64,000 bases of DNA from Eggerthellaceae bacterium (GTDB lineage Bacteria > Actinomycetota > Coriobacteriia > Coriobacteriales > Eggerthellaceae). Of this stretch, positions 2-50,029 are shown one piece after another (within the stretch, counting starts at the first letter, position 1; every line of letters begins with the position of its first letter). The stretch spans positions 24,400-88,399 of the forward strand of contig JAFUCC010000002.1 in NCBI GenBank assembly GCA_017459925.1, read 5' to 3'. The notes under the pieces were generated by a model. The model was not told the origin of the DNA, did no database searches, and worked only from the letters and a program-made list of their open reading frames with translations. The position numbers were made by a program, and so were the translations under genes.

Positions 2-6612
<6,611 letters not shown>

Positions 6613-9700: not shown

Positions 9701-10653
9701 TCTTGCTCGTCGAAGCCTTGGTTTGCGTCGATGTCGGCGTTGCGCGTCACGCAGATGACGTTCGTGTGCTTGATCTTGTACATGCTGAAGATTTCGGGAA
9801 CGAACATCTCGATGGCGTGCTCGAGGAGGATGAACTGGAATCCGCGGCCAGGCAGTTTGATGACGCGTTCACACTGGTGCGGCAGCGGGATGAGCCCGAG
9901 CACCACGCCCTCGGCGCCGCCTTTTTCCTTCTTGGACTTTTCCTTGTCCTTCTTCTTTTTCTTCTTCTTGCGCTCTTCTTCGGTCGCTTCGTCGTCGAGG
10001 CGCACGAGGATGTAGAGCTTGCCGTTTTCCAGATGGGGGAACGGGTGGCGCGAGTTGATGATCTGCGGCGAGAGGAACGGCTCGATGTTGTGCTTCACGA
10101 GGCCGAACAGGTAGTTTCGCTGCTCTTCGGAAAGGTCGTCGGGACGCAGGTGCCGCACGCCTTCCTTCGCCAATTGGCCGCGCACATGCTCGTACGTCGA
10201 TTCGTGGATGGGGTAGAGCTCGTGGCAGCGCTCGTGGATGGCGCGAATCTGCTCTTTGGCCGTCATGCCCGTCTTGGAATCGACGACGGGCGGGTCGATG
10301 AACGACAGGTCGGTAAGACTGCCGACGCGGACCATGAAGAACTCTTGGAGGTTGCTCCAGAAGATCGAGATGAAGTTGAGCCTCTCGAGCAGCGGAACTG
10401 ATTCGTCAGCGCCCTGGTCGAGCACACGCTCGTTGAACGTCAGCCAGGACAGCTCGCGGTTCTGCATGAAAACGCTGCCGCTGTCTTCCTCTTCCTCTTC
10501 GTCTTCATCGGCGGCAAATTCGTAGTAGGCATCGTCGCCTTCGGAGGCGCCGGCAAGGGCGGCTTCGTCGGACAGGGGTGCCAGAGGCTCGCTTGCTTGG
10601 TCGGCTTCGAACTCGCCAAATGCCGTGCCGTCGGTGATGCTCTCTTCGCTCAT
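6733..10653 (-). CDS. ppk1: polyphosphate kinase 1 fused to ~550 aa acidic low-complexity C-terminal tail
   Basis: PPK1-type sequence over the N-terminal ~750 aa ([14 protein letters not shown], two PLD-like His motifs [11 protein letters not shown] and [12 protein letters not shown]). ATG at 10653 preceded by GAGGAA; the track start 10671 is an upstream GTG. Tail from ~8400 down to 6736. Confidence 0.9.
7625..7872 (-). repeat. (Glu-Pro)n coding microsatellite-like repeat inside ppk1 tail
   Basis: Translates to [78 protein letters not shown]; DNA is iterated GGYTCNGG units. Confidence 0.9.
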
Positions 10654-10755
10654 ACGGTTTCCTCTGTTCACGATGGGTTAAAACATCATTACACTATACC
10701 TCATCAAGGTGCATATTTGGTGTATCATCGAGGCATCTTCGAGAAAGGAAACCGC

Positions 10756-12513
10756 ATGCTCGAGCAGGTCGATTTCACGGTAGACAAGATATCCAAGGAA
10801 GACTACAAACCCCGTCACAAAGAGCTCATCAACAAGCTCGTCGTGCTGCAGCAGCAAGCGCGCGCCAAGGGAATTGGCCTCGTGGTCCTGTTCGAGGGGT
10901 GGGGCGGCGCCGGGAAGGGCAGCCGCATTTCCGACCTCATGTACGAGCTCGATGCGCGTGCGACCACGGTTCACGTGACGGAGGACTTCGATGTCGAGGC
11001 GGCACGCAAGTTCGTCGGCTCCGAATGGGGCGTTTCCGACTTCAAGCCCGTCATGCAAGAGTTTTGGCAGTCACTCGGCGAACGAGGCACCATCACGTTC
11101 TACGACCGCGGCTGGTATACGGCGGCAATTGACCAAGCCCTGTTCGAGCTTACGGGCGACAAGCCCAAAGCCGTCAAGAAGCTCGCCAAGAAGGCTAAGG
11201 GCCATCCGCTCGTGGAAGACGGCGCCTCGAAAGCCCGCGGCGAATTCCATGGCGACGTCGTTGCAAGCTACCAGCGCATCGCGCACAACTTCGAGCAGAT
11301 GCTGGTCGACGACGGCTACATTGTCATCAAGCTGTTCGTTCACGTGTCGAAAGAGGCCCAGAAGAAACGCCTCGAGCGCCTGCACGACAACCCCAGCACC
11401 ACGTGGCGCGTGAGCCAGGAGAAGCTCGACCAGGTGATGCACTACGATAGGGCCTACCAGCTCTACGACCGACTGCTCGAGACGAGCAACTTCGCATTCG
11501 CCCCCTGGACGCTCGTGAACGGCGAGGACAAGCGCGCCGCGAACCTGCAGGTGGCGCAAGCGCTCGTCGACGCCATCGAGCATGCGCTGGCAGCCGGTCC
11601 AGACGAAGCTACCGAAGCAGCCAAGAAGAAGGCAGCCGAGAACTCGGCGCGCGCGGCAGCCGCCATCGGCGATGGCGGAGCCGAGGAGGCGAAGGTCGAC
11701 GATGCGGAAGCCGTCCGCAAGGCCGCCGAGGCCGAAGCCGCCCTGCAGCATTCTCAGGCTCCGCGCGGCTCGAACTACATCATCATGGCGGGGTATCCGC
11801 AGATCGACCATTCGAAAGCCAAGCCGACTATCGGAACCGACGAGGAATACAAGGAGCAGCTGAAGGCCGAGCAAGCGCGCTTTGCCGAGCTCGAGCTGGA
11901 AATGTACCAGAAGCGCGTGCCGCTCATGCTCATGTACGAGGGTTGGGATGCCGCCGGCAAGGGCGGAAACATCAAGCGCGTGTGCCAGGCCATCGACGCC
12001 CGCGCATATACCATATTCCCGTCGCCCGCGCCCACCAAGCCCGAGCTCATGCATCCGCATTTGTGGCGCTACTGGATCCGCCTTCCCAAGGCCGGCCATG
12101 TCGGCATCTACGACCGCAGCTGGTACGGACGGGTGCTCGTGGAACGCGTCGAGGGGTTCTCGTCGACCGACCAATGGTCCCGCGCCTACGATGAGATCAA
12201 CGCCTTCGAGTACGAGCTCGTGCAGTGGGGTGCGATCCTGCTGAAGTTCTGGGTCGACATCACCCCCGAAGAGCAGCTGCGCCGATTCGAGGCGCGTCAA
12301 GCCGATCCGAACAAGATTTGGAAGATCACCGACGAGGATTGGCGCAACCGCGACAAGTACCCCCAGTACAAGCAGGCCGTCGACGATATGTTCCGGCTGA
12401 CATCCACCACGTTCGCGCCGTGGATCGTGCTCGAGAGCGATGACAAGCGTTACGCCCGCGTTCAGGCGTTGCGCGCAATCAACGAGGCGCTCGAGGAGCG
12501 CATGCACAAGTAA
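10756..12513 (+). CDS. ppk2: two-domain polyphosphate kinase 2 (polyphosphate:AMP/NMP phosphotransferase type)
   Basis: Two PPK2 P-loop modules (LVVLFEGWGGAGKGSRI and LMLMYEGWDAAGKGGNIKRV) joined by an Ala/Glu-rich linker; ATG 10756 behind GAAAGGAAA; divergent from ppk1. Confidence 0.9.
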   Translation: MLEQVDFTVDKISKEDYKPRHKELINKLVVLQQQARAKGIGLVVLFEGWGGAGKGSRISDLMYELDARATTVHVTEDFDVEAARKFVGSEWGVSDFKPVMQEFWQSLGERGTITFYDRGWYTAAIDQALFELTGDKPKAVKKLAKKAKGHPLVEDGASKARGEFHGDVVASYQRIAHNFEQMLVDDGYIVIKLFVHVSKEAQKKRLERLHDNPSTTWRVSQEKLDQVMHYDRAYQLYDRLLETSNFAFAPWTLVNGEDKRAANLQVAQALVDAIEHALAAGPDEATEAAKKKAAENSARAAAAIGDGGAEEAKVDDAEAVRKAAEAEAALQHSQAPRGSNYIIMAGYPQIDHSKAKPTIGTDEEYKEQLKAEQARFAELELEMYQKRVPLMLMYEGWDAAGKGGNIKRVCQAIDARAYTIFPSPAPTKPELMHPHLWRYWIRLPKAGHVGIYDRSWYGRVLVERVEGFSSTDQWSRAYDEINAFEYELVQWGAILLKFWVDITPEEQLRRFEARQADPNKIWKITDEDWRNRDKYPQYKQAVDDMFRLTSTTFAPWIVLESDDKRYARVQALRAINEALEERMHK

Positions 12514-15190: not shown

Positions 15191-15198
15191 GCCGCAAC

Positions 15199-15269
15199 TT
15201 GAACGTTGTCCCAGGGACGATGTTCAAATTGAAGGAATATTTGAACATCGTCCCTGGGACAACGTTCAA
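15199..15269. repeat. family-A paired palindrome (copy A1)
   Basis: 31-bp perfect inverted arms TTGAACGTTGTCCCAGGGACGATGTTCAAAT / ATTTGAACATCGTCCCTGGGACAACGTTCAA, 9-nt loop; between purN stop and XdhC-like start. Confidence 0.95.
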
Positions 15270-15287
15270 TTCCGAAGAAGGAATGAT

Positions 15288-34939: not shown

Positions 34940-35023
34940 TTGAACATCACCCCAGGGAAGATGTTCAATTTGAGGGCGATTAGTCCTCGGAAAATTGAAC
35001 ATCTTCCCTGGGGTGATGTTCAA
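34940..35023. repeat. family-A paired palindrome (copy A2)
   Basis: 32-bp perfect inverted arms TTGAACATCACCCCAGGGAAGATGTTCAATTT / AAATTGAACATCTTCCCTGGGGTGATGTTCAA, 20-nt loop; preceded by degenerate half copy TTGAACGGCAGGGAG. Confidence 0.95.
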
Positions 35024-37677: not shown

Positions 37678-38604
37678 ATGGCAAACAGGACAGAGACGGC
37701 TCCCACGTTCCAGGACGTCATCATGAACCTGCAACGGTATTGGGCCGACCAGGGCTGCGTTGTGTTGCAGCCTTACGACAACGAGGTCGGTGCTGGCACG
37801 TTCCACACGGCCACCACGCTGCGGTCGCTGGGTCCGGGGGTGTGGCGCACGGCATACGTGCAACCGTCGCGTCGCCCGACAGACGGACGCTACGGCGAGA
37901 ACCCCAACCGCCTGCAGCATTACTACCAGTTCCAAGTCATCCTGAAGCCGTCTCCCGATGACGTGCAGCAGCTGTACCTCGACTCGCTGCGCGCCATCGG
38001 AATCGACATCGACGAACACGATGTGCGCTTCGTCGAGGACGACTGGGAGTCCCCGACGCTTGGCGCCTGGGGCCTCGGCTGGGAGGTTTGGATCGACGGC
38101 ATGGAAGTCACGCAGTTCACCTACTTCCAGCAGGTCGGCGGCTTCGAATGCAGCCCGGTTCCAGCCGAGATCACGTACGGGCTCGAGCGTCTGACCATGT
38201 ACATCCAAGGCGTCGACAGCGTCTATGACATCGTCTGGTCACGCGGCGAGGACGGCACCGTGTTCACATATGGCGACGTGTTCCTCGAGAACGAGCGCGA
38301 GTTCTCGGCGTACAACTTCGAAGTCGCCGATACCGATTTCCTGTTCGGAGAGTTCGACCGTTACGAGCGCGAATGCAACCGCGTGCTCGAGGCGGGCCTT
38401 CCGCTGCCGGCGTACGACTATGTGCTGAAGTGCAGCCATGCATTCAACCTGCTCGATGCGCGCGGCGTCATCTCGCAGACCGAGCGCATGGGCTACATCT
38501 TGCGCGTGCGCACCATCGCCAAGGCGTGCTGCGCGAGCTATCTCGAGCATGTCGTGGGCGAGAGTACCTCGACCGAGGGGAAGGGGGCCGAAGATGGCGA
38601 ATAA
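37678..38604 (+). CDS. glyQ: glycine-tRNA ligase alpha subunit
   Basis: [37 protein letters not shown]; ATG 37678 behind GAAGGAG. Confidence 0.95.
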
Positions 38605-40678
38605 GACGCTTGCCTTTGAAATCGGCACCGAGGAGCTGCCCGCATTCGATTTGCATGCCGCAACCGAGAAACTCGGCGATTTGGCTTCTACGGCGCTTGA
38701 CGGCGCAAAGATTCCGCATGGCGACGTTTCCGTGTACACCACGCCGCGCCGCCTCATCGTCATCGTCGCCGATGTTCCCGAGGCTACCGAAGCCGCCGTT
38801 GAAGAGTTCCGTGGCCCTGCTGCCAAGATCGCGTTCGACGAGAGCGGCGAGCCGACGAAGGCTGCCATCGGTTTTGCACGCGGCAAGGGCGTCGACCCTG
38901 CGAGCCTCGAGCGCCGCGACGAGAACGGCACCGAGTACGTGTACGCCGTGAAGGAGACCCCTTCGCTTGACGTGGTCGCATTGCTGCCCGACTTGCTCGG
39001 CAACCTCATCACGGCTATCTCTTGGCCTAAATCGCAGCGCTGGGGAAGCCGCCGCGAGCAGTTCAGCCGTCCGGTGCGCTGGATCCTCGCGATGCTCGGC
39101 GAGACGGTCGTGCCCGTCGAGTTCGCTGGCCTCGTAGCCGGGAACACGACGCGCGGCCACCGGTTCTTGAACCCCGGTCCGCATGAGGTTGCGTCGGCTG
39201 AGAAGCTCATCGACGTGTTGCGTGCTGCGAACGTCGTTCCGAGCGAAGCAGAGCGCGAGAGCTCGATTCGCGAGCAGGTGAGAGCCATCGAGGCCGAAAC
39301 GGGGCTCGTCGCCGAGCTTCCCGCGAAGACGATGGAAGAGGTTGTGAACCTGACCGAATTCCCTACTGTCATGGTCGGCGAGTTCGACGAGCTGTTCCTG
39401 GCCGTGCCGAAGGAGATCACGGTTGACGCCATGCTCGTTCATCAGCGTTACTTCCCGCTGTTCAATGCAGACGGCACGCTTTCCAACAAGTTCCTCATCA
39501 CGTCGAACGGCAATCCCGATTTCCGCGAGAACATCGTCGACGGCAACCAGCGCGTTGTCGCCGCGCGCCTCTATGACGCGAAGTTCTTCTATGACGAGGA
39601 CCTGAAGAAACCGCTCGAGGCATATGTCGAGCGCTTGGGCGAGGTCGTGTTCCAGGAATCCCTCGGCACGACGCGCGCCAAGACCGACCGCATCGTCGAG
39701 CTTGCGAAGCGCCTTGCTGCAGATGCGGGGCTCGCGGGCCAAGACGCCGCAGATGCCGAGCGAGCAGCTTATCTGTGCAAGGCAGACCTTGTCACTGGCG
39801 CGGTGGTCGAGTTCACGAGCGTTCAGGGCATCATGGGCCGCTACTATGCGAAGGCTGCAGGCGAGACCGACCAGGTTGCTGAAGCCATCGCAGACCATTA
39901 CCGTCCGCGATTCGCAGGGGACGACACGCCGGCCAGCATGGTGGGCAAAGTTGTTGCCGCAGCTGACAAGCTCGACACGATTTGCGGCCTGTTCGCTGTG
40001 GGGCAAGGCCCGACTGGCTCTTCCGACCCGTTTGCCTTGCGCCGTTCCGCCATCGGCATTTTGGCGATGCTCGAAGACGGCCTCGACATCTCGCTCATCG
40101 ACGCCATCGACTCCGCGCTCGACATTTACGAGCAAGGCGGATTGAAGTTCGACCGTGAAGCCGTGCGTGCCGAAGTCGTCGATTTCTTCGTTACGCGCAC
40201 CAAGGTCATGTTGCGCGATTCCGGCATAGCAGCCGATACCGTCGACGCCGTTCTCGCATCTGGCGTTGCCGAGCCTATGGTCATCATGGGCCGTGCCCGC
40301 GCGCTTGAAAGCGCCCGAGCCAACGACAAGGAAACGTTCGACGATTTGGCCACGGCTTACGCGCGCGCGAACAACCTACGCGATGCCGAGCTTGGCGCCG
40401 ATGTCGACGAGTCGCTTTTCGGCGATGAGGAGAAGGCGCTGAACGCTGCCGTGGCAGCCGCCGAATCCGCCGTTGCCAATGCGCTCGCTGCCGATGATTA
40501 CCCGCAGGCTCTGTCTGTGCTCGCTGGTTTGCGCGGGCCTATCGATGCGTTCTTCGAGAACGTCATGGTGATGGATGAGGACGACAAGGTGCGCGCCAAC
40601 CGCCTGAAGCTCCTCAACCGCTTCGTCGGCGTGTTCGGGAACGTCGCGGACTTCGGGAAGATGTCGAAGAGCAAGTAA
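38594..40678 (+). CDS. glyS: glycine-tRNA ligase beta subunit
   Basis: [17 protein letters not shown]; ATG 38594 overlaps the glyQ end by 11 nt. Confidence 0.93.
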
Positions 40679-40680
40679 CC

Positions 40681-40783
40681 GATGAGTAGCAGGACTGTCC
40701 TGCTACTCATTTTCTAGCAACCAACCGTGCTCGCAGACTGTCATAGGAAATGAGTAGCAAGACAGTCCTGCTACTCATTTTTT
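40681..40783. repeat. family-B paired palindrome (copy B2)
   Basis: ATGAGTAGCAGGACTGTCCTGCTACTCAT (40682-40710) and ATGAGTAGCAAGACAGTCCTGCTACTCAT (40750-40778), 39-nt spacer; between convergent glyS and the VTC gene. Confidence 0.95.
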
Positions 40784-41681
40784 ACGAAGCGCGCTGCATG
40801 TCCTCTAAGCCGTAGCCTGGTGATGGCTGGATCAGGGTTTCGGTATTCATGGCGCGCTCCTTGGATGTGGGGATGCGGTAAATCGAGACCTTGCCGGAAT
40901 CGGTTTTGCGCACTTGGACGGCGCCTTGTTCGGCGAGGACGCGCTTGTAGGCATTTCCGTATTTCGAGAAGGAACGCGGGTAAGCTCCAACCGACGAGAG
41001 AAGCTCGCAGAGCCATACAGGGTAGCCGCCTGCGCACTTGATCTCCATGATCACCTGATCGGGCGCAGTGACGGGGCGGCGTTGAACCGAGCCTTCCTCC
41101 ATAAGGTCGACGTAGCAGATGTCTTCGTCGAACGTGATGCGGTCGACGCAGTCTTCGTCTGCCGGGTCGATCTTGCACCACGCTTCTCGCAAGCAGCTGA
41201 TGAGCATCGACGGTTTCAGGCCTTCGTAGCGGTCGAAGAACGCATCGAGCTCGCGTGCGATTTGCACTTTGCCGGGGAGCAGCTCCTTGCTGCCATCTGT
41301 TCCGGGAATGGGGAGCTGCGTTTGCGCGTCCTCGTAGGACATGCCGTTGATGTAGGCTCGCGCGCCTTCGGCGCTCATGCGCACGCGGCGTTTGTACACG
41401 ATGCCCTTGAACTTCTTCTTGATCTCGACGAATACCGACTCTGCTTCTGAAAACGGGCCGTAGCTGCGGATGCGCAGCTTCTCTTTGTAAAGGGGCTTTT
41501 CAAGCGATCTGCAGATCAGCGAGCGGTCGGGCGTGTCCAAATAAAGGCTGTCGATGCGCGTCGCCCCGTAGTCGTCGAGGCGCATGTGGGCGGCGAGCCC
41601 TGCCTTGATGGCCTCGCATTGCCCGGTCGTTATGAGGTACTTCTTCTCTTTGCGTTCAAAGGTGTCTGCTGCAGTAGCCAT
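40782..41681 (-). CDS. VTC-domain protein (triphosphate-tunnel, Vtc4-like polyphosphate polymerase fold)
   Basis: FERKEKKYLI N-terminal acidic/basic tunnel motif, SLYLDTPD, KEKLRIRSY, VEIKKKFKGIVYKRR, CLREAW, RITFDEDI, VIMEIKCAGGYPVWL, SFSKYGNAY. Collinear with bacterial VTC-domain proteins as I recall them. ATG 41681 behind AAGGGAAAGGAAG. Confidence 0.8.
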   Translation of the reverse strand: MATAADTFERKEKKYLITTGQCEAIKAGLAAHMRLDDYGATRIDSLYLDTPDRSLICRSLEKPLYKEKLRIRSYGPFSEAESVFVEIKKKFKGIVYKRRVRMSAEGARAYINGMSYEDAQTQLPIPGTDGSKELLPGKVQIARELDAFFDRYEGLKPSMLISCLREAWCKIDPADEDCVDRITFDEDICYVDLMEEGSVQRRPVTAPDQVIMEIKCAGGYPVWLCELLSSVGAYPRSFSKYGNAYKRVLAEQGAVQVRKTDSGKVSIYRIPTSKERAMNTETLIQPSPGYGLEDMQRAS

Positions 41682-41711
41682 GTTGGGCTTCCTTTCCCTT
41701 GTGCCATGAGC

Positions 41712-41744
41712 ATGGTACGCGTCGCACCTGAATCGAAGCTGAAA
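41712..41744 (-). promoter_or_regulatory. Pho-box-like operator plus -10 for the VTC gene
   Basis: Minus strand reads TTTCAG-cttcg-ATTCAG-10 nt-TACCAT. Confidence 0.55.
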
Positions 41745-41750
41745 GAGCGT

Positions 41751-41782
41751 TTTCAGGCAGGTTTCAGCTTCTCGGCTAGAAT
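41751..41782 (+). promoter_or_regulatory. Pho-box-like operator plus -10 for the two-component operon
   Basis: TTTCAG-gcagg-TTTCAG-9 nt-TAGAAT, 28 nt upstream of the response-regulator ATG. Confidence 0.55.
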
Positions 41783-41809
41783 GGGCTTGTACGCGGAAAG
41801 GCGGAACCA

Positions 41810-42484
41810 ATGCAGATACTCATCGTTGAAGACGACATTCGGCTGGCCCAGGCAGTTGGGAAAATCCTCGAGGAAAACGACTATCAAGTCGATATGGTGC
41901 ACGATGGGCAATCAGGTCTCGATTACGCCGAGTCGGGCATTTACGACGTGGTGATCCTCGACGTCATGTTGCCGAAGATGGACGGGTTCGAGGTGTCGAA
42001 GCAGCTGCGCCGCAAGGGCGTAGACACGCCGGTGCTCATGCTTACGGCACGCGCCCAGATTCCCGACAAGATCGAAGGGCTCGATTCGGGCGCAGACGAC
42101 TACATGACCAAGCCGTTTTCGCCGGCAGAGTTGCTGGCGCACCTGAGGGCTCTCACGCGGCGCACAGGTCAGGTCGTGTTCGAGACCCTTGCGTTTTCCG
42201 ACCTCGAGCTGAACCTCGAAAGCCACGATTTGAAATGCGGCAGCAAGTCCATCAACCTGTCGTACAAAGAGTTCTCGCTCATAAACATCCTCATGACCAA
42301 CCATGGGCAAATCGTGTCGAAAGAAACCCTCATCTCGAAAGTCTGGGGCGTGGAGTCAACCGCCGTCGATAATAATGTGGAAGCATACGTGTCGTTCTTG
42401 CGCAAGAAGCTGAAGTTCCTCGGTTCGAAGGCGCAAATCGAGACGATCAGGAAAGTGGGATACCGCCTGACCGACGAGGGTTAG
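41810..42484 (+). CDS. OmpR/PhoB-family response regulator
   Basis: MQILIVEDD, receiver Asp in VILDVMLPKMDG, winged-helix C-domain ending IETIRKVGYRL. Confidence 0.93.
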   Translation: MQILIVEDDIRLAQAVGKILEENDYQVDMVHDGQSGLDYAESGIYDVVILDVMLPKMDGFEVSKQLRRKGVDTPVLMLTARAQIPDKIEGLDSGADDYMTKPFSPAELLAHLRALTRRTGQVVFETLAFSDLELNLESHDLKCGSKSINLSYKEFSLINILMTNHGQIVSKETLISKVWGVESTAVDNNVEAYVSFLRKKLKFLGSKAQIETIRKVGYRLTDEG

Positions 42485-42485
42485 C

Positions 42486-43832
42486 ATGCTGAAAAAACTT
42501 CGCATCAAGTTCGTGGCGATCATCATGGCCTCGGTGGCCGTGGTGCTCGCCATCGTGTTCACGGGAATCTGCGTATCCGAATACCAACGCAGCATGTCGA
42601 CGGTGAGCGAAGCGCTGAGCACTTCGATCGACAGGGCGAGTAACGACGGCCTTAATGCACCCGATCCGTTCATGAAGGGCGGCATGCGGTTTGACATCGA
42701 AAGCGCTTTCGAGGACTTCGATGATGTTGACGAGCTGTCCGACATGGTGAACGAGTTCATCGATGAACGCGAATTCGGAGGCCCGCGCATTGGTGGAGGC
42801 CGCGAGGAAGAACGCTCTCTTGTGCCAGTGGCCGTGTACGTACTCGATTCCTCCGGGACCTACACCGCCGTATCCCGCTACACCACCGCTTATATCGAGG
42901 AGGATGTGCTTACGTCTGCTTCAAGCCAGCTTGTAAGCGTTGGGGAGGGGAGCGGTGAGCTTTCGAGCCTGGGGCTCGTGTACGAGAAGCGCTCGGTTGA
43001 AGGATTCACCTATGTCGCCTTCGCCGATGCATCGTATGCGTCGAGCTGGCAATCGCTCGCAGTTTCGCTTCTAATTGCGGGAATCCTCACCCTTGCCGTG
43101 TTCTTCGTGATCGCGCTATTGCTCTCGAAGTGGGCGCTCAAACCCGTTGAAGAGGCGTGGACCGCGCAACGTCAATTCGTGGCCGACGCATCTCATGAGC
43201 TGAAGACCCCGCTAACGGTCGTTCTGGCGAACACGTCTATCCTGCTGAAGCACCCAGAGTCCACCATCGCGAACCAAAGCCAGTGGATCGAGAGCACCCA
43301 AGTGGAAGCCGAGAGCATGCAAGGGCTCGTGAACGAGATGCTTGAACTTGCCCAGGTCGAATCGCGGGCAAATGTGCAGCATGAAGAATTCGATTTCAGC
43401 GATATGGTGGCCGGCGAGACGCTGCAGTTCGAGTCTGTCGCCTACGAGCGCGGCTGCCGGTTCGAGGAATCGGTTGCCGAGGGAATCACGGTTTCCGGAG
43501 ACGCCCAACGCCTGCGCAAGATGACCTCGACCCTTATCGAGAACGCCTTGAAGTACGTCGATGAGGGCGGGTTGGTCGAAGTGAAGCTGGAAGCCAAAGG
43601 CGACATAGCCCATATGACCATTCACAACACTGGCTCGACAATAGCGCCCGAGGATCTTCCGCATATCTTCGACCGTTTCTACCGCACCGACAAGGCGCGC
43701 ACATCCGGTACCGGCGGCTTCGGCCTCGGCCTCGCCATCGCCCGCGAAATCGCCCGCGAGCACGACGGCGACATAACCTGCGACAGCAACGAATCAGGTA
43801 CCACTTTTACTGCAACCCTCCCGATAGCTTAA
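42486..43832 (+). CDS. sensor histidine kinase (two TM helices, ~150 aa external loop)
   Basis: H-box ASHELKTPLT, N-box ENALKY, G-boxes HNTGSTI / GTGGFGLGLAIA. Confidence 0.92.
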   Translation: MLKKLRIKFVAIIMASVAVVLAIVFTGICVSEYQRSMSTVSEALSTSIDRASNDGLNAPDPFMKGGMRFDIESAFEDFDDVDELSDMVNEFIDEREFGGPRIGGGREEERSLVPVAVYVLDSSGTYTAVSRYTTAYIEEDVLTSASSQLVSVGEGSGELSSLGLVYEKRSVEGFTYVAFADASYASSWQSLAVSLLIAGILTLAVFFVIALLLSKWALKPVEEAWTAQRQFVADASHELKTPLTVVLANTSILLKHPESTIANQSQWIESTQVEAESMQGLVNEMLELAQVESRANVQHEEFDFSDMVAGETLQFESVAYERGCRFEESVAEGITVSGDAQRLRKMTSTLIENALKYVDEGGLVEVKLEAKGDIAHMTIHNTGSTIAPEDLPHIFDRFYRTDKARTSGTGGFGLGLAIAREIAREHDGDITCDSNESGTTFTATLPIA

Positions 43833-43902
43833 AAAGTAAAAGAGAGTAGCCCACTGCAGAGGGAAGGGGGTGAGGGCGATTCCGCAGCTACGCGAGGCGG
43901 CA

Positions 43903-44006
43903 AGTTGAACGTTACCCCAGGGACGATGTTCAAATTGAAAGAACGCTTTAACGCAAAGTTGAAGTTTCAACAAATTTGAACATCGTCCCTGGGGTAACGT
44001 TCAACT
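43903..44006. repeat. family-A paired palindrome (copy A3), nested in an outer 13-bp inverted repeat
   Basis: 34-bp perfect arms AGTTGAACGTTACCCCAGGGACGATGTTCAAATT / AATTTGAACATCGTCCCTGGGGTAACGTTCAACT, 36-nt loop; outer GAGGGAAGGGGGT (43859-43871) pairs with ACCCCCTTCCCTC (44037-44049). Confidence 0.95.
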
Positions 44007-44081
44007 AGCTGGTGAGTCTGCGAGGACAAGCCCGAAACCCCCTTCCCTCAACCCGGAGCGGACAGAAGGACAAACGCATCC

Positions 44082-44114
44082 TTTCAGCATCTTTTAAGTT
44101 TCCTTTCCTACTAT
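44082..44114 (+). promoter_or_regulatory. Pho-box-like operator plus -10 for the DUF4956 gene
   Basis: TTTCAG-catct-TTTAAG-10 nt-TACTAT, 41 nt upstream of ATG 44155. Confidence 0.55.
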
Positions 44115-44154
44115 TTGCCTATCAACGGGAAACCTTTGGGAAAGGAAACCAATC

Positions 44155-44853
44155 ATGGATGCATTGTTCACTTCGGTGCTCGGCACGACCGAGTCGGCTA
44201 TGACGACGGTGACGACCGCCGGCTTCATGTGGTGCACGCTCGCGTCGATCGTCCTCGGCTTGGTGTGCGCGCTCATCTACATGTACAAGCACGACTACTC
44301 GAAGAACTTCGTCGTGACGCTGGCGCTCATGCCCGTCATCGTGCAGATGGTCATCACTCTCGTCAACGGAAACCTTGGCGCGGGCGTCGCAGTCATGGGC
44401 GTGTTCAACCTCGTGCGCTTCCGCTCGATAGCGGGTACGGCAAAGGACATCGGAAGCGTGTTCCTGGCAATGGCCATCGGCCTCGCGACCGGTATGGGCT
44501 ATATCGGCGTTGCCGCCATCCTCACGGTCGTCGTGGGCGTGTTCAACATCATTTACGTCACGACTCCGTTCGGAAGCCCGCGTGAGTCCGCCAAGAAGAA
44601 GCAGCTGAAGATCACGGTTCCCGAGGACCTCGAGTTCGAAGGCGCGTTCGACGAAGTGCTCGCGAACTACACGGCGACGTGCGAGCTGCAGAACGTCTCG
44701 ACGAGCAACATGGGCAGCTTGTACCAGCTTGAGTACTTGGTTTCCATGAAGGCTGACGGGCTCGAGAAGCGCATGATCGACGAGCTGCGCTGCCTGAACG
44801 GCAACCTGAAGATCTCGCTGGGGTCTCCGCAGATGAAACGCGAAGTCCTGTAA
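44155..44853 (+). CDS. DUF4956-family membrane protein
   Basis: Four predicted TM helices with LVRFRS and GLATGMGYIG motifs, then a soluble tail LKITVPEDLEFEGAFDEVL ... DELRCLNGNLKISL; matches DUF4956 proteins as I recall them. Confidence 0.8.
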   Translation: MDALFTSVLGTTESAMTTVTTAGFMWCTLASIVLGLVCALIYMYKHDYSKNFVVTLALMPVIVQMVITLVNGNLGAGVAVMGVFNLVRFRSIAGTAKDIGSVFLAMAIGLATGMGYIGVAAILTVVVGVFNIIYVTTPFGSPRESAKKKQLKITVPEDLEFEGAFDEVLANYTATCELQNVSTSNMGSLYQLEYLVSMKADGLEKRMIDELRCLNGNLKISLGSPQMKREVL

Positions 44854-44928
44854 GACGCTGGTGTGGGGTTGGTGGGCGATTCCGGAGCGAAATGCTTCAA
44901 GGCGACCAAAGCATCGTCCATCCGCGGA

Positions 44929-44966
44929 AAAACGACCCAGGTGGTTATCCATCTGGGTCGTTTTGC
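44929..44966 (+). terminator. intrinsic terminator after the DUF4956 gene
   Basis: AAAACGACCCAG-12 nt-CTGGGTCGTTTT. Confidence 0.8.
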
Positions 44967-45060
44967 GTTACTATTGGATTCGTAACAAGCGAGTGTCCTT
45001 CTGGCGCTCGTTTCCGTGTTGGTTTCAGCATAAATGCAGCATCGAGTGGAGGAGTGCAAA

Positions 45061-47772
45061 GTGGCTGAGGCAGTCAAGCGCGTCTACAAATTCGGCAAGG
45101 ACGCACGGGGCAACAACGTAACCGAAGGCAATACCGACATGAAATACGTGCTCGGCGGCAAGGGCGCGAACCTCGCCGAGATGGCCAACATCGGCCTGCC
45201 GGTGCCTCCGGGATTCACCATCACGTGCCAGACGTGCATGGAGTATGCAAATGCCGACAACACCTGGCCGGAAGGCGCTCTCGACGAAATCGCCGAGTAC
45301 CGTGCCGACCTGGAAGAGCGCATGGGCAAGCGCATCGGCGACGACGCCGACCCGCTGCTCGTTTCCGTCCGCTCGGGCGCTCCCATGTCGATGCCCGGCA
45401 TGATGGACACCGTCCTCAACCTCGGCCTGAACGACCGTTCCATCAACGGCCTCATTGCCCAGACCGAGAATCCCCGTTTCGCATGGGACAGCTACCGCCG
45501 CTTCATCCAGATGTTCTCCAACGTGGTCATGGGCATCGACGGCGACAAGTTCGAGCATGCCATCACGGCCGCCAAGGACGCCAAGGGCGTCAAGGAAGAC
45601 ACCGAGCTCGACGCCGCCGACCTCGAAGCGCTCGTAGCCACTTTCAAGGGCATCTTCTCCGACAGCGTCGACGCTGCCGAGTACCCCGAGCTCGTCGTTG
45701 ACGGCAAGGTTCAGTTCCCGCAGGACCCGATGGCCCAGCTGAAGCTCGCCATCGAGGCCGTGTTCGGCTCTTGGAACAACCCGCGCGCAACGCTCTACCG
45801 CAAGCAGAACAAGATTGCCGACGACCTCGGCACCGCCGTCAACGTGCAGTGCATGGTGTTCGGCAACAAGGGCGACACATCCGCCACGGGCGTTGCCTTC
45901 ACGCGTAACGCCGCCGACGGCACCAAGGAATTCTACGGCGACTACCTCGTTAACGCCCAGGGCGAAGACGTCGTCGCCGGCATCCGCAACACCTCGCCGA
46001 TCTCCGAGCTGAAGCACGTCTCCGGCCTCGAGACCGCCGGCCAGGAGCTTGAGGACATCTTCGTGCTGCTCGAGAACCACTTCCGCGACATGATGGACAT
46101 CGAGTTCACCATCGAGCAGGGCAAGCTGTTCATGCTGCAGACCCGCGTCGGCAAGCGCACCGCCGCCGCCGCGCTGAAGATCGCCATCGACATGGAGAAG
46201 GAAGGCCTCATCACCAAGGAAGAGGCCGTCATGCGCGTCGCTCCCGAGCAGCTCGACCAGCTGCTGCATCCGCAGTTCGACAAGAGCGCCAAATACGACG
46301 TCGTGGCCCGCGGCCTGAACGCTTCTCCTGGCGCTGCCGTCGGCGCTGCCGTGTTCTCGGCTGAAGCCGCCGTTGCCGCCGCCGAGGAAGGCAAGAAGAC
46401 CGTCCTCGTGCGTTGGGAGACCACGCCCGACGACCTCGCCGGCATGATCGCCGCCGAGGGCATCCTCACCTCGCATGGCGGCAAGACCTCGCACGCGGCC
46501 GTCATCGCCCGCGGCATGGGCGCTCCGTGCGTCTGCGGCGTCGAAGCCTTGAAGATCGACGCTGAGAAGAAGGAAGCCGCCATCGCCGGCACCGACATCG
46601 TCATCAAGGAAGGCGACCTCATCTCGCTCGACGGCACCACGGGCATCGTGGTCCTGGGCGCGGTCGACCTGGTGCAGCCCGAGCTCACCGGCGACCTCGA
46701 CACCATCCTCGAGTGGGCTGACGAGTTCCGCACCCTCGGCGTTCGCGCCAATGCCGACAACCCGGCCGACGCGCAGCTTTCGCGCGACTTCGGCGCGCAG
46801 GGCATCGGCCTGTGCCGCACTGAGCACATGTTCCTGGGCGACCGCAAGCAGATCGTGGCCGACATGATCCTCGCCGAGTCGGAGAGCCCCGAGTATTACG
46901 CGGCGCTTGACAAGCTGTACGATGCACAGCAGGGCGACTACTACGAGATGCTGAAGGCCATGGACGGCCTGCCCGTCATCATCCGCCTGCTCGACCCTCC
47001 TCTGCACGAGTTCCTTCCCTCGGCCCAAGAGCTCGCCATCAAGGTTGCTGTCGACGCCGTGAAGGGCGAACACGACCCCGCGATCAAGAGGCTGCTCAAC
47101 GCTGCCGAGAACATGGCGGAAATGAACCCGATGCTCGGCCTGCGCGGCTGCCGCCTCGGCATCGTCATGCCCGGCCTGTCTGCCATGCAGGTGCGCGCCA
47201 TCGCCACTGCCACGGCGAAGCTGATCAAGGAAGGCTTCGACCCGAAGCCCGAGGTCATGATTCCGCTTGTCTCGATGGAAAACGAGCTCATCTACGTCCG
47301 CAACGAGGCCGAGAAGGCCATCAAGGAAGTCGAAGAGCGCGACGGCGTCGACCTGTCCTTCATCGAAATCGGCACCATGATCGAGTTGCCGCGTGCGGCT
47401 ATCACCGCTGACGAGATCGCCGAGAAGGCCGACTTCTTCTCCTTCGGTACCAATGACCTCACGCAGACGACGTTCGGCTTCAGCCGCGACGACGTCGAGG
47501 GCAAGTTCTTCAAGGACTACGAGAACCTGGGCATCATGAAGGTGAACCCGTTCGCGACAGTCGACGACGGCGTCGTGAAGCTGATCGACATCGCCGTCAA
47601 GGGCGGCCGTTCCACGAACCCCGAACTCGTGACCGGCGTCTGCGGCGAGCACGGTGGCGATCCGGACTCCATTCACAAGTTCCACAAGGTCGGCCTGACC
47701 TATGTGTCCTGCTCGCCGTACCGCGTGCCGGTTGCTCGCCTTGCCGCTGCTCAGGCTGCGCTCGAGAAGTAA
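45061..47772 (+). CDS. ppdK: pyruvate, phosphate dikinase
   Basis: GGKGANLAEM, phospho-His TSHAAVIARGMG, GLCRTEHMF, CGEHGGDP; GTG 45061 behind GGAGGA. Confidence 0.95.
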   Translation: MAEAVKRVYKFGKDARGNNVTEGNTDMKYVLGGKGANLAEMANIGLPVPPGFTITCQTCMEYANADNTWPEGALDEIAEYRADLEERMGKRIGDDADPLLVSVRSGAPMSMPGMMDTVLNLGLNDRSINGLIAQTENPRFAWDSYRRFIQMFSNVVMGIDGDKFEHAITAAKDAKGVKEDTELDAADLEALVATFKGIFSDSVDAAEYPELVVDGKVQFPQDPMAQLKLAIEAVFGSWNNPRATLYRKQNKIADDLGTAVNVQCMVFGNKGDTSATGVAFTRNAADGTKEFYGDYLVNAQGEDVVAGIRNTSPISELKHVSGLETAGQELEDIFVLLENHFRDMMDIEFTIEQGKLFMLQTRVGKRTAAAALKIAIDMEKEGLITKEEAVMRVAPEQLDQLLHPQFDKSAKYDVVARGLNASPGAAVGAAVFSAEAAVAAAEEGKKTVLVRWETTPDDLAGMIAAEGILTSHGGKTSHAAVIARGMGAPCVCGVEALKIDAEKKEAAIAGTDIVIKEGDLISLDGTTGIVVLGAVDLVQPELTGDLDTILEWADEFRTLGVRANADNPADAQLSRDFGAQGIGLCRTEHMFLGDRKQIVADMILAESESPEYYAALDKLYDAQQGDYYEMLKAMDGLPVIIRLLDPPLHEFLPSAQELAIKVAVDAVKGEHDPAIKRLLNAAENMAEMNPMLGLRGCRLGIVMPGLSAMQVRAIATATAKLIKEGFDPKPEVMIPLVSMENELIYVRNEAEKAIKEVEERDGVDLSFIEIGTMIELPRAAITADEIAEKADFFSFGTNDLTQTTFGFSRDDVEGKFFKDYENLGIMKVNPFATVDDGVVKLIDIAVKGGRSTNPELVTGVCGEHGGDPDSIHKFHKVGLTYVSCSPYRVPVARLAAAQAALEK

Positions 47773-49069: not shown

Positions 49070-49098
49070 TTGAACATCACCCCAGGGGTGATGTTCAA
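49070..49098. repeat. family-A single palindrome (copy A4)
   Basis: TTGAACATCACCCC-A-GGGGTGATGTTCAA, perfect 14-bp arms, abutting the cysK stop and 43 nt upstream of the mnmA start. Confidence 0.95.
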
Positions 49099-49099
49099 A

Positions 49100-50029
49100 T
49101 TAGAAGTCGAATAACGGCGTGGAAAGGTAGCGCTCTCCCGTATCGGGGAGGATCACCACGATGAGCTTGCCTTCGCTTTCGGGACGTTCGGCGACCTTGC
49201 GCGCAGCGCTAACGGCGGCGCCTGCGGAGATTCCGACGAGCAAACCGTCCTTTGCGGAAAGCTCGCGTGCGGCTTCGTAGGCCTCCTCCTCTTGAATGGC
49301 GATGACCTCATCGTAGATGGTAGTGTCCAGCGTCTCGGGCACGAATCCTGCACCGATGCCCTGAAGGCCATGGCTTCCAGCGTTTCCGCCAGACAACACA
49401 GGCGAGTTCGCGGGTTCGACGGCGATGACTTTCACATCGGGGTTTTGCCCTTTCAGGTAGCGGCCGACGCCCGTCAGGGTACCGCCAGTGCCGACGCCGG
49501 CGACGAAGAGGTCAACCTTGCCCTCGGTATCGCGCCAGATTTCAGGGCCTGTCGTGAACTCGTGCGTGGAAGGGTTGGCGGGGTTGGTGAACTGGCTCGG
49601 TATGAACGAGTTTTCGATCTCCGCGCATAGCTCGTTCGCCTTGTCGATGGCGCCCTTCATGCCAGCAGACCCATCGGTCAGGACAATCTCGGCACCGTAA
49701 GCCTTGGCGAGGTTTCGGCGCTCGACAGACATCGTCTCGGGCATCGTCAGGATAAGCCGCATGCCGTGCGTGGCCGCAATGGCGGCGAGCCCGATGCCGG
49801 TGTTGCCCGACGTCGGCTCGATGAGCGTCGTGCTCTCGTTGATGCGCCCGGCGGCGAGGGCCGCGTCGAGCATCGACTTGGCGATGCGGTCTTTGACGGA
49901 ACCAGCAGGATTGAAGAATTCGACCTTGCCGACTATGGTGGCTTTCAGGCTGTGGTTCTGCTCGTAATGCGTCAACTCGACGAGCGGGGTGTTGCCGATG
50001 AGCTCGGCAATGCTTTTGTGAATCGACAT
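49100..50029 (-). CDS. cysK: cysteine synthase A (O-acetylserine sulfhydrylase)
   Basis: [11 protein letters not shown] (PLP Lys), [20 protein letters not shown]. Confidence 0.95.

Follow-up and report, generated by a model that had tools for sequence, protein, structure and literature searches.

Response regulators of the OmpR/PhoB family bind direct repeats with an 11-bp period as head-to-tail dimers. At class II promoters of the PhoB type, the pho box (consensus CTGTCAT-N4-CTGTCAT) replaces the -35 region and is located approx. 10 bp upstream of the -10 box. PhoP of Mycobacterium tuberculosis activates transcription as a tandem dimer on 11-bp direct repeats with the repeat unit TCACAGC, and the PmrA/BasR box has the form YTTAAK-N5-YTTAAK. 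Control of translation by upstream sequences has been described for insertion sequences. In the fold-back protection of IS10 and IS50, an anti-Shine-Dalgarno (anti-SD) sequence is placed upstream of the element's own transcription start, so that only read-through RNA buries the ribosome binding site (RBS). IS200 combines an SD-sequestering stem with protection against impinging transcription (PMC4513863).

The locus described here lies in a 64-kb stretch of Eggerthellaceae DNA, which was analyzed over its whole length of 64,000 nucleotides and is called the window below. Between glyS and the gene for pyruvate phosphate dikinase (PPDK) it carries genes for a VTC-domain protein, a response regulator (RR), a sensor histidine kinase (HK) and a DUF4956 membrane protein (Table 1). 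The kinase exhibits two hydrophobic segments around an acidic outside domain of approx. 160 amino acids. The catalytic domain of the yeast polyphosphate polymerase belongs to the VTC domain family. No sequence relatives of VTC or DUF4956 were found in the PDB, and the literature searched on DUF4956, on VTC with two-component systems and on the PmrA box contained nothing usable on the function or regulation of DUF4956 or VTC. A PPK2 protein of 638 aa, matched to PPK2 in several stretches, is encoded at 10597-12513, approx. 30 kb from the VTC and DUF4956 genes, without a regulator motif nearby. In the region between the convergent glyS and VTC genes (40675-40785) we observed two tandem hairpins of approx. 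29 nt (ATGAGTAGCAGGAC-T-GTCCTGCTACTCAT) with a T-run behind each of them; they are probably duplicated bidirectional terminators. An Rfam scan of 40000-46000 by E-value returned no relevant RNA element; sub-threshold, spurious mir-8517 matches fell on these terminator hairpins.

Table 1. Genes and sequence elements of the VTC/DUF4956 locus (positions in the window)
Feature	Position	Strand	Remarks
glyS	38438-40678	+	
VTC-domain gene	40782-41681	-	PF09359, E = 5.5e-40; ATG at 41681
Putative VTC-side operator TTTCAGcttcgATTCAG	41728-41744	-	-10 box TACCAT 41717-41712 after 10-nt spacer; 19.8 bits; conserved in 46 loci
Putative RR-side operator TTTCAGgcaggTTTCAG	41751-41767	+	-10 box TAGAAT 41777-41782 after 9-nt spacer; 23.2 bits; conserved in 46 loci
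OmpR/PhoB-family response regulator (RR)	41810-42484	+	PF00072 (2e-31) receiver, PF00486 (5e-21) winged helix (Trans_reg_C)
Sensor histidine kinase (HK)	42486-43832	+	PF00512 and PF02518
Nested palindrome	43859-44049	.	outer arms 43859-71 / 44037-49; inner 37-nt arms 43900-36 / 43973-44009
Putative DUF4956 operator, distal half-site TTTCAG	44082-44087	+	pattern search; distal half of first-ranked matrix match 44082-44098
Putative DUF4956 operator, proximal half-site TTTAAG	44093-44098	+	11-bp register with distal half-site
Putative anti-SD arm GTTTCCTTTCC	44098-44108	+	operator/-10 spacer, upstream of predicted transcription start
Predicted -10 box TACTAT, DUF4956 promoter	44109-44114	+	10 nt after operator; -35 consensus absent
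DUF4956 ribosome binding site GGAAAGGAAAC, 3' arm of hairpin	44139-44149	+	perfect 11-nt inverted repeat with 44098-44108
DUF4956 membrane-protein gene	44155-44853	+	232 aa; Pfam PF16316, E = 1.1e-17
Pyruvate phosphate dikinase (PPDK)	45034-47772	+	

Upstream of the DUF4956 gene the two hexamers of the direct repeat TTTCAG-catct-TTTAAG are followed by a 10-nt spacer (44099-44108) and by TACTAT. Re-reading of the bases at 44082-44114 gave exactly the architecture of the original prediction, and the 41 nt that it had given between TACTAT and the start agree with the ATG at 44155, the first base of which lies 41 nt past the last base of TACTAT. When both strands of the 64-kb window were searched for TTTCAG-N5-TTTMAG, two matches were obtained (41751 and 44082), while 0.00 were expected from 100 shuffles. 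The relaxed pattern TTTCAG-N5-WTTMAG, searched in the same way, had three matches against 0.00 expected in shuffles, namely the three putative operators of this locus, the sole addition being 41728 on the minus strand. This search also bore out the earlier statement that the window contains no further copy of the motif, the ppk2 region included.

The specificity of the motif was also evident from a position weight matrix, which was derived from RR and VTC promoter sites of other genomes, leaving out the window and its closest relative L001. Among approx. 128,000 positions in the window the DUF4956 site ranked first with 24.7 bits, ahead of the RR and VTC sites (23.2 and 19.8 bits). The next match reached 13.0 bits and sits inside the palindrome between HK and DUF4956; the matrix scan thus yielded no additional regulon members in the 64-kb window. 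The DUF4956-proximal site is a genuine feature that goes far beyond what chance would produce. When 903,616 bp from related loci were scanned, matches of at least 16 bits were located at 68 VTC, 51 RR and 20 DUF4956 promoters and at 25 positions elsewhere. Among the latter, several form the divergent counterpart of a VTC-side site in genomes whose RR gene is located elsewhere, and others lie 5' of a NUDIX gene. In four distant genomes (L012 10477-10493, L020 8473, L033 12109 and L054 10459, all on the minus strand) a site that scores high and has a -10 box at the correct spacing is located approx. 300 nt upstream of a NUDIX-hydrolase gene, and in two of them a Cthe_2159-family gene is found directly 3' of DUF4956 (L012 6694-8784, L020 3195-5339). 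The NUDIX-hydrolase and Cthe_2159-family genes may be additional regulon members in these distant genomes.

The divergent spacer between VTC and RR displayed CTGAAA-N5-CTGAAA toward VTC and TTTCAG-N5-TTTCAG toward RR in all 46 distinct Eggerthellaceae loci, so that the regulator's own promoter carries the same motif in the window (41751-41767) as in the 46 loci. On the RR side a TAnAAT box follows 9 nt after the site, with the consensus bases present in 43-47 of 48 sites; on the VTC side a TAnnAT box follows after 10 nt (41-45 of 46 sites). As the search pattern fixed part of the hexamers only, the -10 positions were not imposed. The difference of one base between the two spacers is systematic across genomes. 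The 11-bp period of the half-sites at the DUF4956 site of the window recurs in 94 RR/VTC sites and 26 DUF4956 sites. The view that the DUF4956 site matches both sites at 41.7 kb needs one small correction: the 10-nt distance to the -10 box is shared with the VTC side, while the spacing on the RR side is 9 nt.

Altogether 117 loci were gathered, comprising 80 contigs selected as one genome per species, 16 metagenome loci and 21 loci from look-ups of exact proteins. DUF4956 homologues were 62-99% identical across Eggerthellaceae; the closest one (99%) belongs to L001, an uncultured Eggerthellaceae genome from red deer, and further relatives throughout the family share 62-92% identity. Comparison of orthologous loci, as suggested with the original prediction, revealed conservation of the repeats in 46 VTC/RR loci and 26 DUF4956 sequences. 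These 26 distinct DUF4956 upstream sequences come from one clade with protein identities of 72-100% and represent several gene orders. All of them retained two hexamers separated by N5, the 10 nt and the -10 box. The distal hexamer is TTTCAG in 17 of the 26 sequences, the spacer from operator to -10 box measures exactly 10 nt in every one, and a TAnnAT-like -10 hexamer exists in 25; the exception, L007, reads CACAAT. Variants of the -10 box before DUF4956 include TACCAT, TAGCAT and TACTAT, and its distance to the start is mostly 34-41 nt. While hexamers and -10 box are held constant, the N5 and the 10-nt spacer are free to vary, a pattern expected for a protein-binding site combined with a promoter. 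In more distant genera (below 72% identity) the DUF4956-proximal site was not found, indicating that it is clade-specific. In L007 four hexamers in consecutive 11-bp register (TTTCAG, TTTCAG, TTTAAG, TTTCAG; 4913-4951) precede DUF4956; this array might be an extended operator bound by two regulator dimers.

The sites before DUF4956 differ from the others in their proximal hexamer. YTTAAG occupies this position in 23 of 26 DUF4956-type sites and in 13 of 94 RR/VTC-type sites (Fisher p = 1.5e-12, uncorrected for phylogeny), and TTTCAG is the proximal hexamer at most RR and VTC sites. The DUF4956 operator therefore looks like a recognizable YTTAAG subtype, possibly tuned in affinity or set to a different activation threshold. 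It could be argued from the distinctive proximal hexamer, which resembles half-sites of the PmrA/BasR type, that a different OmpR-family regulator encoded elsewhere binds here and that DUF4956 stands outside the VTC regulon. We regard this as quite improbable, since the VTC-side sites show the identical distal hexamer, register, orientation and 10-nt spacing to the -10 box, and TTTAAG also occurs at bona fide RR and VTC sites. Furthermore, the site accompanies the cluster of two-component system, VTC and DUF4956 through several rearrangements, and a matrix trained on other genomes puts it top in the window. The likeness to the PmrA/BasR box lies in the hexamer-N5-hexamer direct repeat and in the proximal YTTAAG, which fits that consensus. 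In contrast, the distal half-site is TTTCAG, and phylum and targets are unrelated.

The encoded regulator stayed below every NCBIfam equivalog cut-off: it scored 218.6 against 250 for RppA, 183.6 against 296.2 for PhoB (TIGR02154), 183.6 against 330 for PmrA and 147.3 against 471 for NF007546. Among solved structures, its nearest relatives include Thermotoga DrrD and M. tuberculosis PhoP (E = 1e-44; 3r0j, 5ed4, 9ji3). Membership in the Pho regulon was rejected on the basis of the PhoB cut-offs and the conserved hexamer, which is TTTCAG and not a pho box; PmrA membership was rejected on its cut-off and on the differing motif. PhoP of M. tuberculosis is related in sequence, with no orthology claimed; it shares the use of 11-bp direct repeats and differs in repeat unit and regulon. 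The promoters of E. coli PhoB are similar in layout, with two repeats in 11-bp register in place of the -35 region, a regulator composed of receiver and winged helix, and an autoregulated operon. Unlike there, the half-site is TTTCAG/TTTAAG instead of CTGTCAT, and the targets are VTC and DUF4956 instead of pst/pho. By class, the putative site is a familiar direct-repeat operator of the OmpR/PhoB type; what is new is its definition for the VTC/DUF4956 pair.

Most probably, the site is an operator of this RR in an activator-dependent DUF4956 promoter, and DUF4956 belongs to one small regulon together with VTC and RR-HK. From motif and geometry we infer that the phosphorylated RR would bind the hexamers of TTTCAG-N5-TTTAAG as a head-to-tail dimer. 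Positioned 10 nt upstream of TACTAT in place of the missing -35 region, the dimer would recruit RNA polymerase, and transcription would start at approx. 44121, giving a leader of approx. 34 nt. At 41.7 kb the same motif would drive the promoters of VTC and of RR-HK, which point in opposite directions, resulting in autoregulation and in co-induction of VTC and DUF4956; the products of these two genes are presumed to be partners. The direction of control is not given by sequence alone, and with the repeat located over the -35 position the same RR could also be pictured as a repressor that blocks RNA polymerase until a signal arrives. Such repression seems unlikely to us. There is no recognizable -35 hexamer to occlude, as no σ70-type -35/-10 pair was detected in 40600-45100; the same geometry exists at the RR's own and the VTC promoters in 46 loci; and the layout fits class II activation of the PhoB type, with its pho box 10 bp upstream of the -10 box.

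The gene order of related genomes was compared as well. Of 75 distant loci, 73 have VTC directly 5' of DUF4956, and there the two neighbors presumably form one operon. The common order is HK and RR on one strand, facing away from VTC and DUF4956 on the other, and L008 shows it, flanked by glyS and PPDK just as the block of the window is. Compared with L008 (2393-5352), the VTC-RR-HK block of the window (40782-43832) is inverted. The inverted block with HK before DUF4956 was present in the window, L001, L002, L004, L097, L098, L102, L112 and L115; L003 and L005 have it too, plus an insert between RR and HK. Judged from these orders, DUF4956 was separated from VTC in the window by a secondary inversion of the VTC-RR-HK block. 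Inside the clade both block orders were seen together with the DUF4956 promoter and operator, which are therefore older than the inversion. VTC and DUF4956 are ancestral neighbors, whose separation was permitted by the independent, putatively RR-dependent promoter.

Adjacency of VTC and DUF4956 in the distant loci, taken together with the inversion in the window, supports a single regulon. The third operator of the same kind supports a tie between DUF4956, the VTC gene and the two-component system, as the original prediction had proposed; the conserved motif and -10 geometry and the first rank in the matrix scan point in the same direction.

The surroundings of DUF4956 are unusually fluid in the clade. 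HK may lie upstream on the same strand, VTC may lie upstream on the same or the opposite strand, and a further arrangement has HK, VTC and DUF4956 all on one strand. Inverted repeats flanking the VTC-RR-HK block, which could serve as a recurrent substrate for an invertase or for recombination, were looked for and not found; only operators and RBS regions are alike. From RBS to ATG, VTC (41678-41698) and DUF4956 (44138-44158) are identical at 18 of 21 positions (GGGAAAGGAAnCCnAnCATGG), which would reflect either a shared strong SD context or the trace of a promoter-region duplication. Independent origins of the HK-upstream order were considered as well, since this order takes three positions in the NJ tree of DUF4956 genes. 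The tree is star-like, however, and the shared breakpoint just upstream of the operator speaks for a single inversion, so that independent origins are not claimed.

Between HK and the operator the window contains a nested palindrome (Table 1), which had been taken for an insulator. Its existence and position between HK and the site were confirmed; an insulator role was not borne out. Its inner part (43900-44009) is one copy of a palindromic element that recurs at 15198-15275, approx. 34951-35012 and 49081-49100. The family has the core CCCAGGGACGATGTTCAAAT, occurs in intergenic inverted pairs and is present in at least four copies in 64 kb; these repeats look like REP- or MITE-like elements. 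The inner palindrome is an insertion relative to L001, which has the outer arms only, and L002, L004 and L005 lack a palindrome altogether, their kinase stop codon being 4-12 nt before the operator. By this comparison the palindrome is not a conserved part of the system. It includes no T-run terminator, nor does any other part of the region between HK and DUF4956, and it may be a local hindrance to read-through.

An unexpected feature was observed in the spacer between operator and -10 box, which forms a perfect inverted repeat with the DUF4956 RBS. RNA folding of 44060-44175 resulted in a 13-bp stem over the RBS with a buried SD sequence (-36.3 kcal/mol, z = -4.9). In contrast, RNA comprising 44121-44175 displayed no significant structure (z = +1.0). 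The duplex of spacer and RBS in the window has an energy of -18.0 kcal/mol compared with -6.2 kcal/mol for shuffles. Column-wise covariation was replaced by duplex energies and a cross-pairing matrix, as the register of pairing is not constant from locus to locus. Mean duplex energies were -12.8 kcal/mol for nine loci with HK upstream of DUF4956 and -4.8 kcal/mol, a shuffle-like value, for 14 loci with VTC upstream (Mann-Whitney p = 1.6e-4). Eight of the nine HK-upstream loci reached -11.4 kcal/mol or stronger, and two further ones with -13.8 and -15.3 kcal/mol bring this to ten of 11. Besides the window, pairing was found in the HK-upstream loci L001, L002, L004, L005, L097, L098, L112 and L115. 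Exceptions exist on both sides, namely L003 with HK upstream and no pairing, and L111 with VTC upstream and pairing.

In the cross-pairing matrix, HK-upstream spacers paired with their own RBS at -12.7 kcal/mol and with those of other loci at -11.3 kcal/mol. The signal is one of generic anti-SD composition and not of strict covariation, although the spacers of L005, L097 and L112 pair with their own locus-specific 3' flanks. Since the HK-upstream loci probably descend from one inversion, the association between gene order and pairing is not phylogenetically independent.

These data suggest a scenario that we put forward tentatively and hold to be somewhat less than an even chance: after the inversion the spacer would have been recruited as an anti-SD sequence, so that read-through RNA is silenced and RNA started at the promoter is translated. 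The arm would act in read-through transcripts only, because it lies upstream of the predicted start site. In HK-upstream genomes, RNA reading through from the kinase operon would contain the 10-nt spacer, fold it onto the RBS and be poorly translated, while RNA begun at the regulator-dependent promoter would not include the arm and would allow translation of DUF4956. The 10-bp stretch between operator and -10 box would be free for this use, as it is presumably read closely by neither regulator nor σ factor. The resemblance to IS10/IS50 and IS200 is that an upstream sequence pairs with the RBS in longer transcripts, here in a predicted stem of 13 bp. Unlike in these elements, the arm resides inside a chromosomal, putatively regulator-dependent promoter and follows a gene-order inversion, and the mechanism is proposed from folding and association.

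Read-through also bears on the view that the site arose by chance or is decaying as a relic, with DUF4956 expressed via read-through from RR-HK only. The missing T-run terminator would favor it, and with the kinase stop so close to the site in L002, L004 and L005, read-through is likely there. Still, we give this view very little probability. Chance matches expected for the motif amount to zero, and 26 sequences covering 72-100% protein identity and several gene orders retain the hexamers and the -10 box, while their spacers drift. Moreover, the anti-SD spacer in HK-upstream loci argues for selection against read-through RNA as a template. An RR-dependent promoter in front of DUF4956 thus remains our preferred reading.

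Taken together, the comparison assigns a well-defined putative operator, TTTCAG-N5-TTTCAG/YTTAAG at a fixed distance of 9-10 nt to a -10 box, to a dedicated two-component system that had not been described before. This system accompanies the bacterial VTC-domain/DUF4956 pair, itself uncharacterized, across Eggerthellaceae. With this motif whole genomes can be searched for the regulon, and RR, kinase and the three promoters offer a handle on the signal that induces a putative polyphosphate-related membrane system of gut and rumen bacteria. If true, the pairing of spacer and RBS would represent a compact natural example of how, once genes have been rearranged, one of them is insulated from read-through from upstream; it would be a promoter-embedded device by which translation would depend on which promoter made the RNA.
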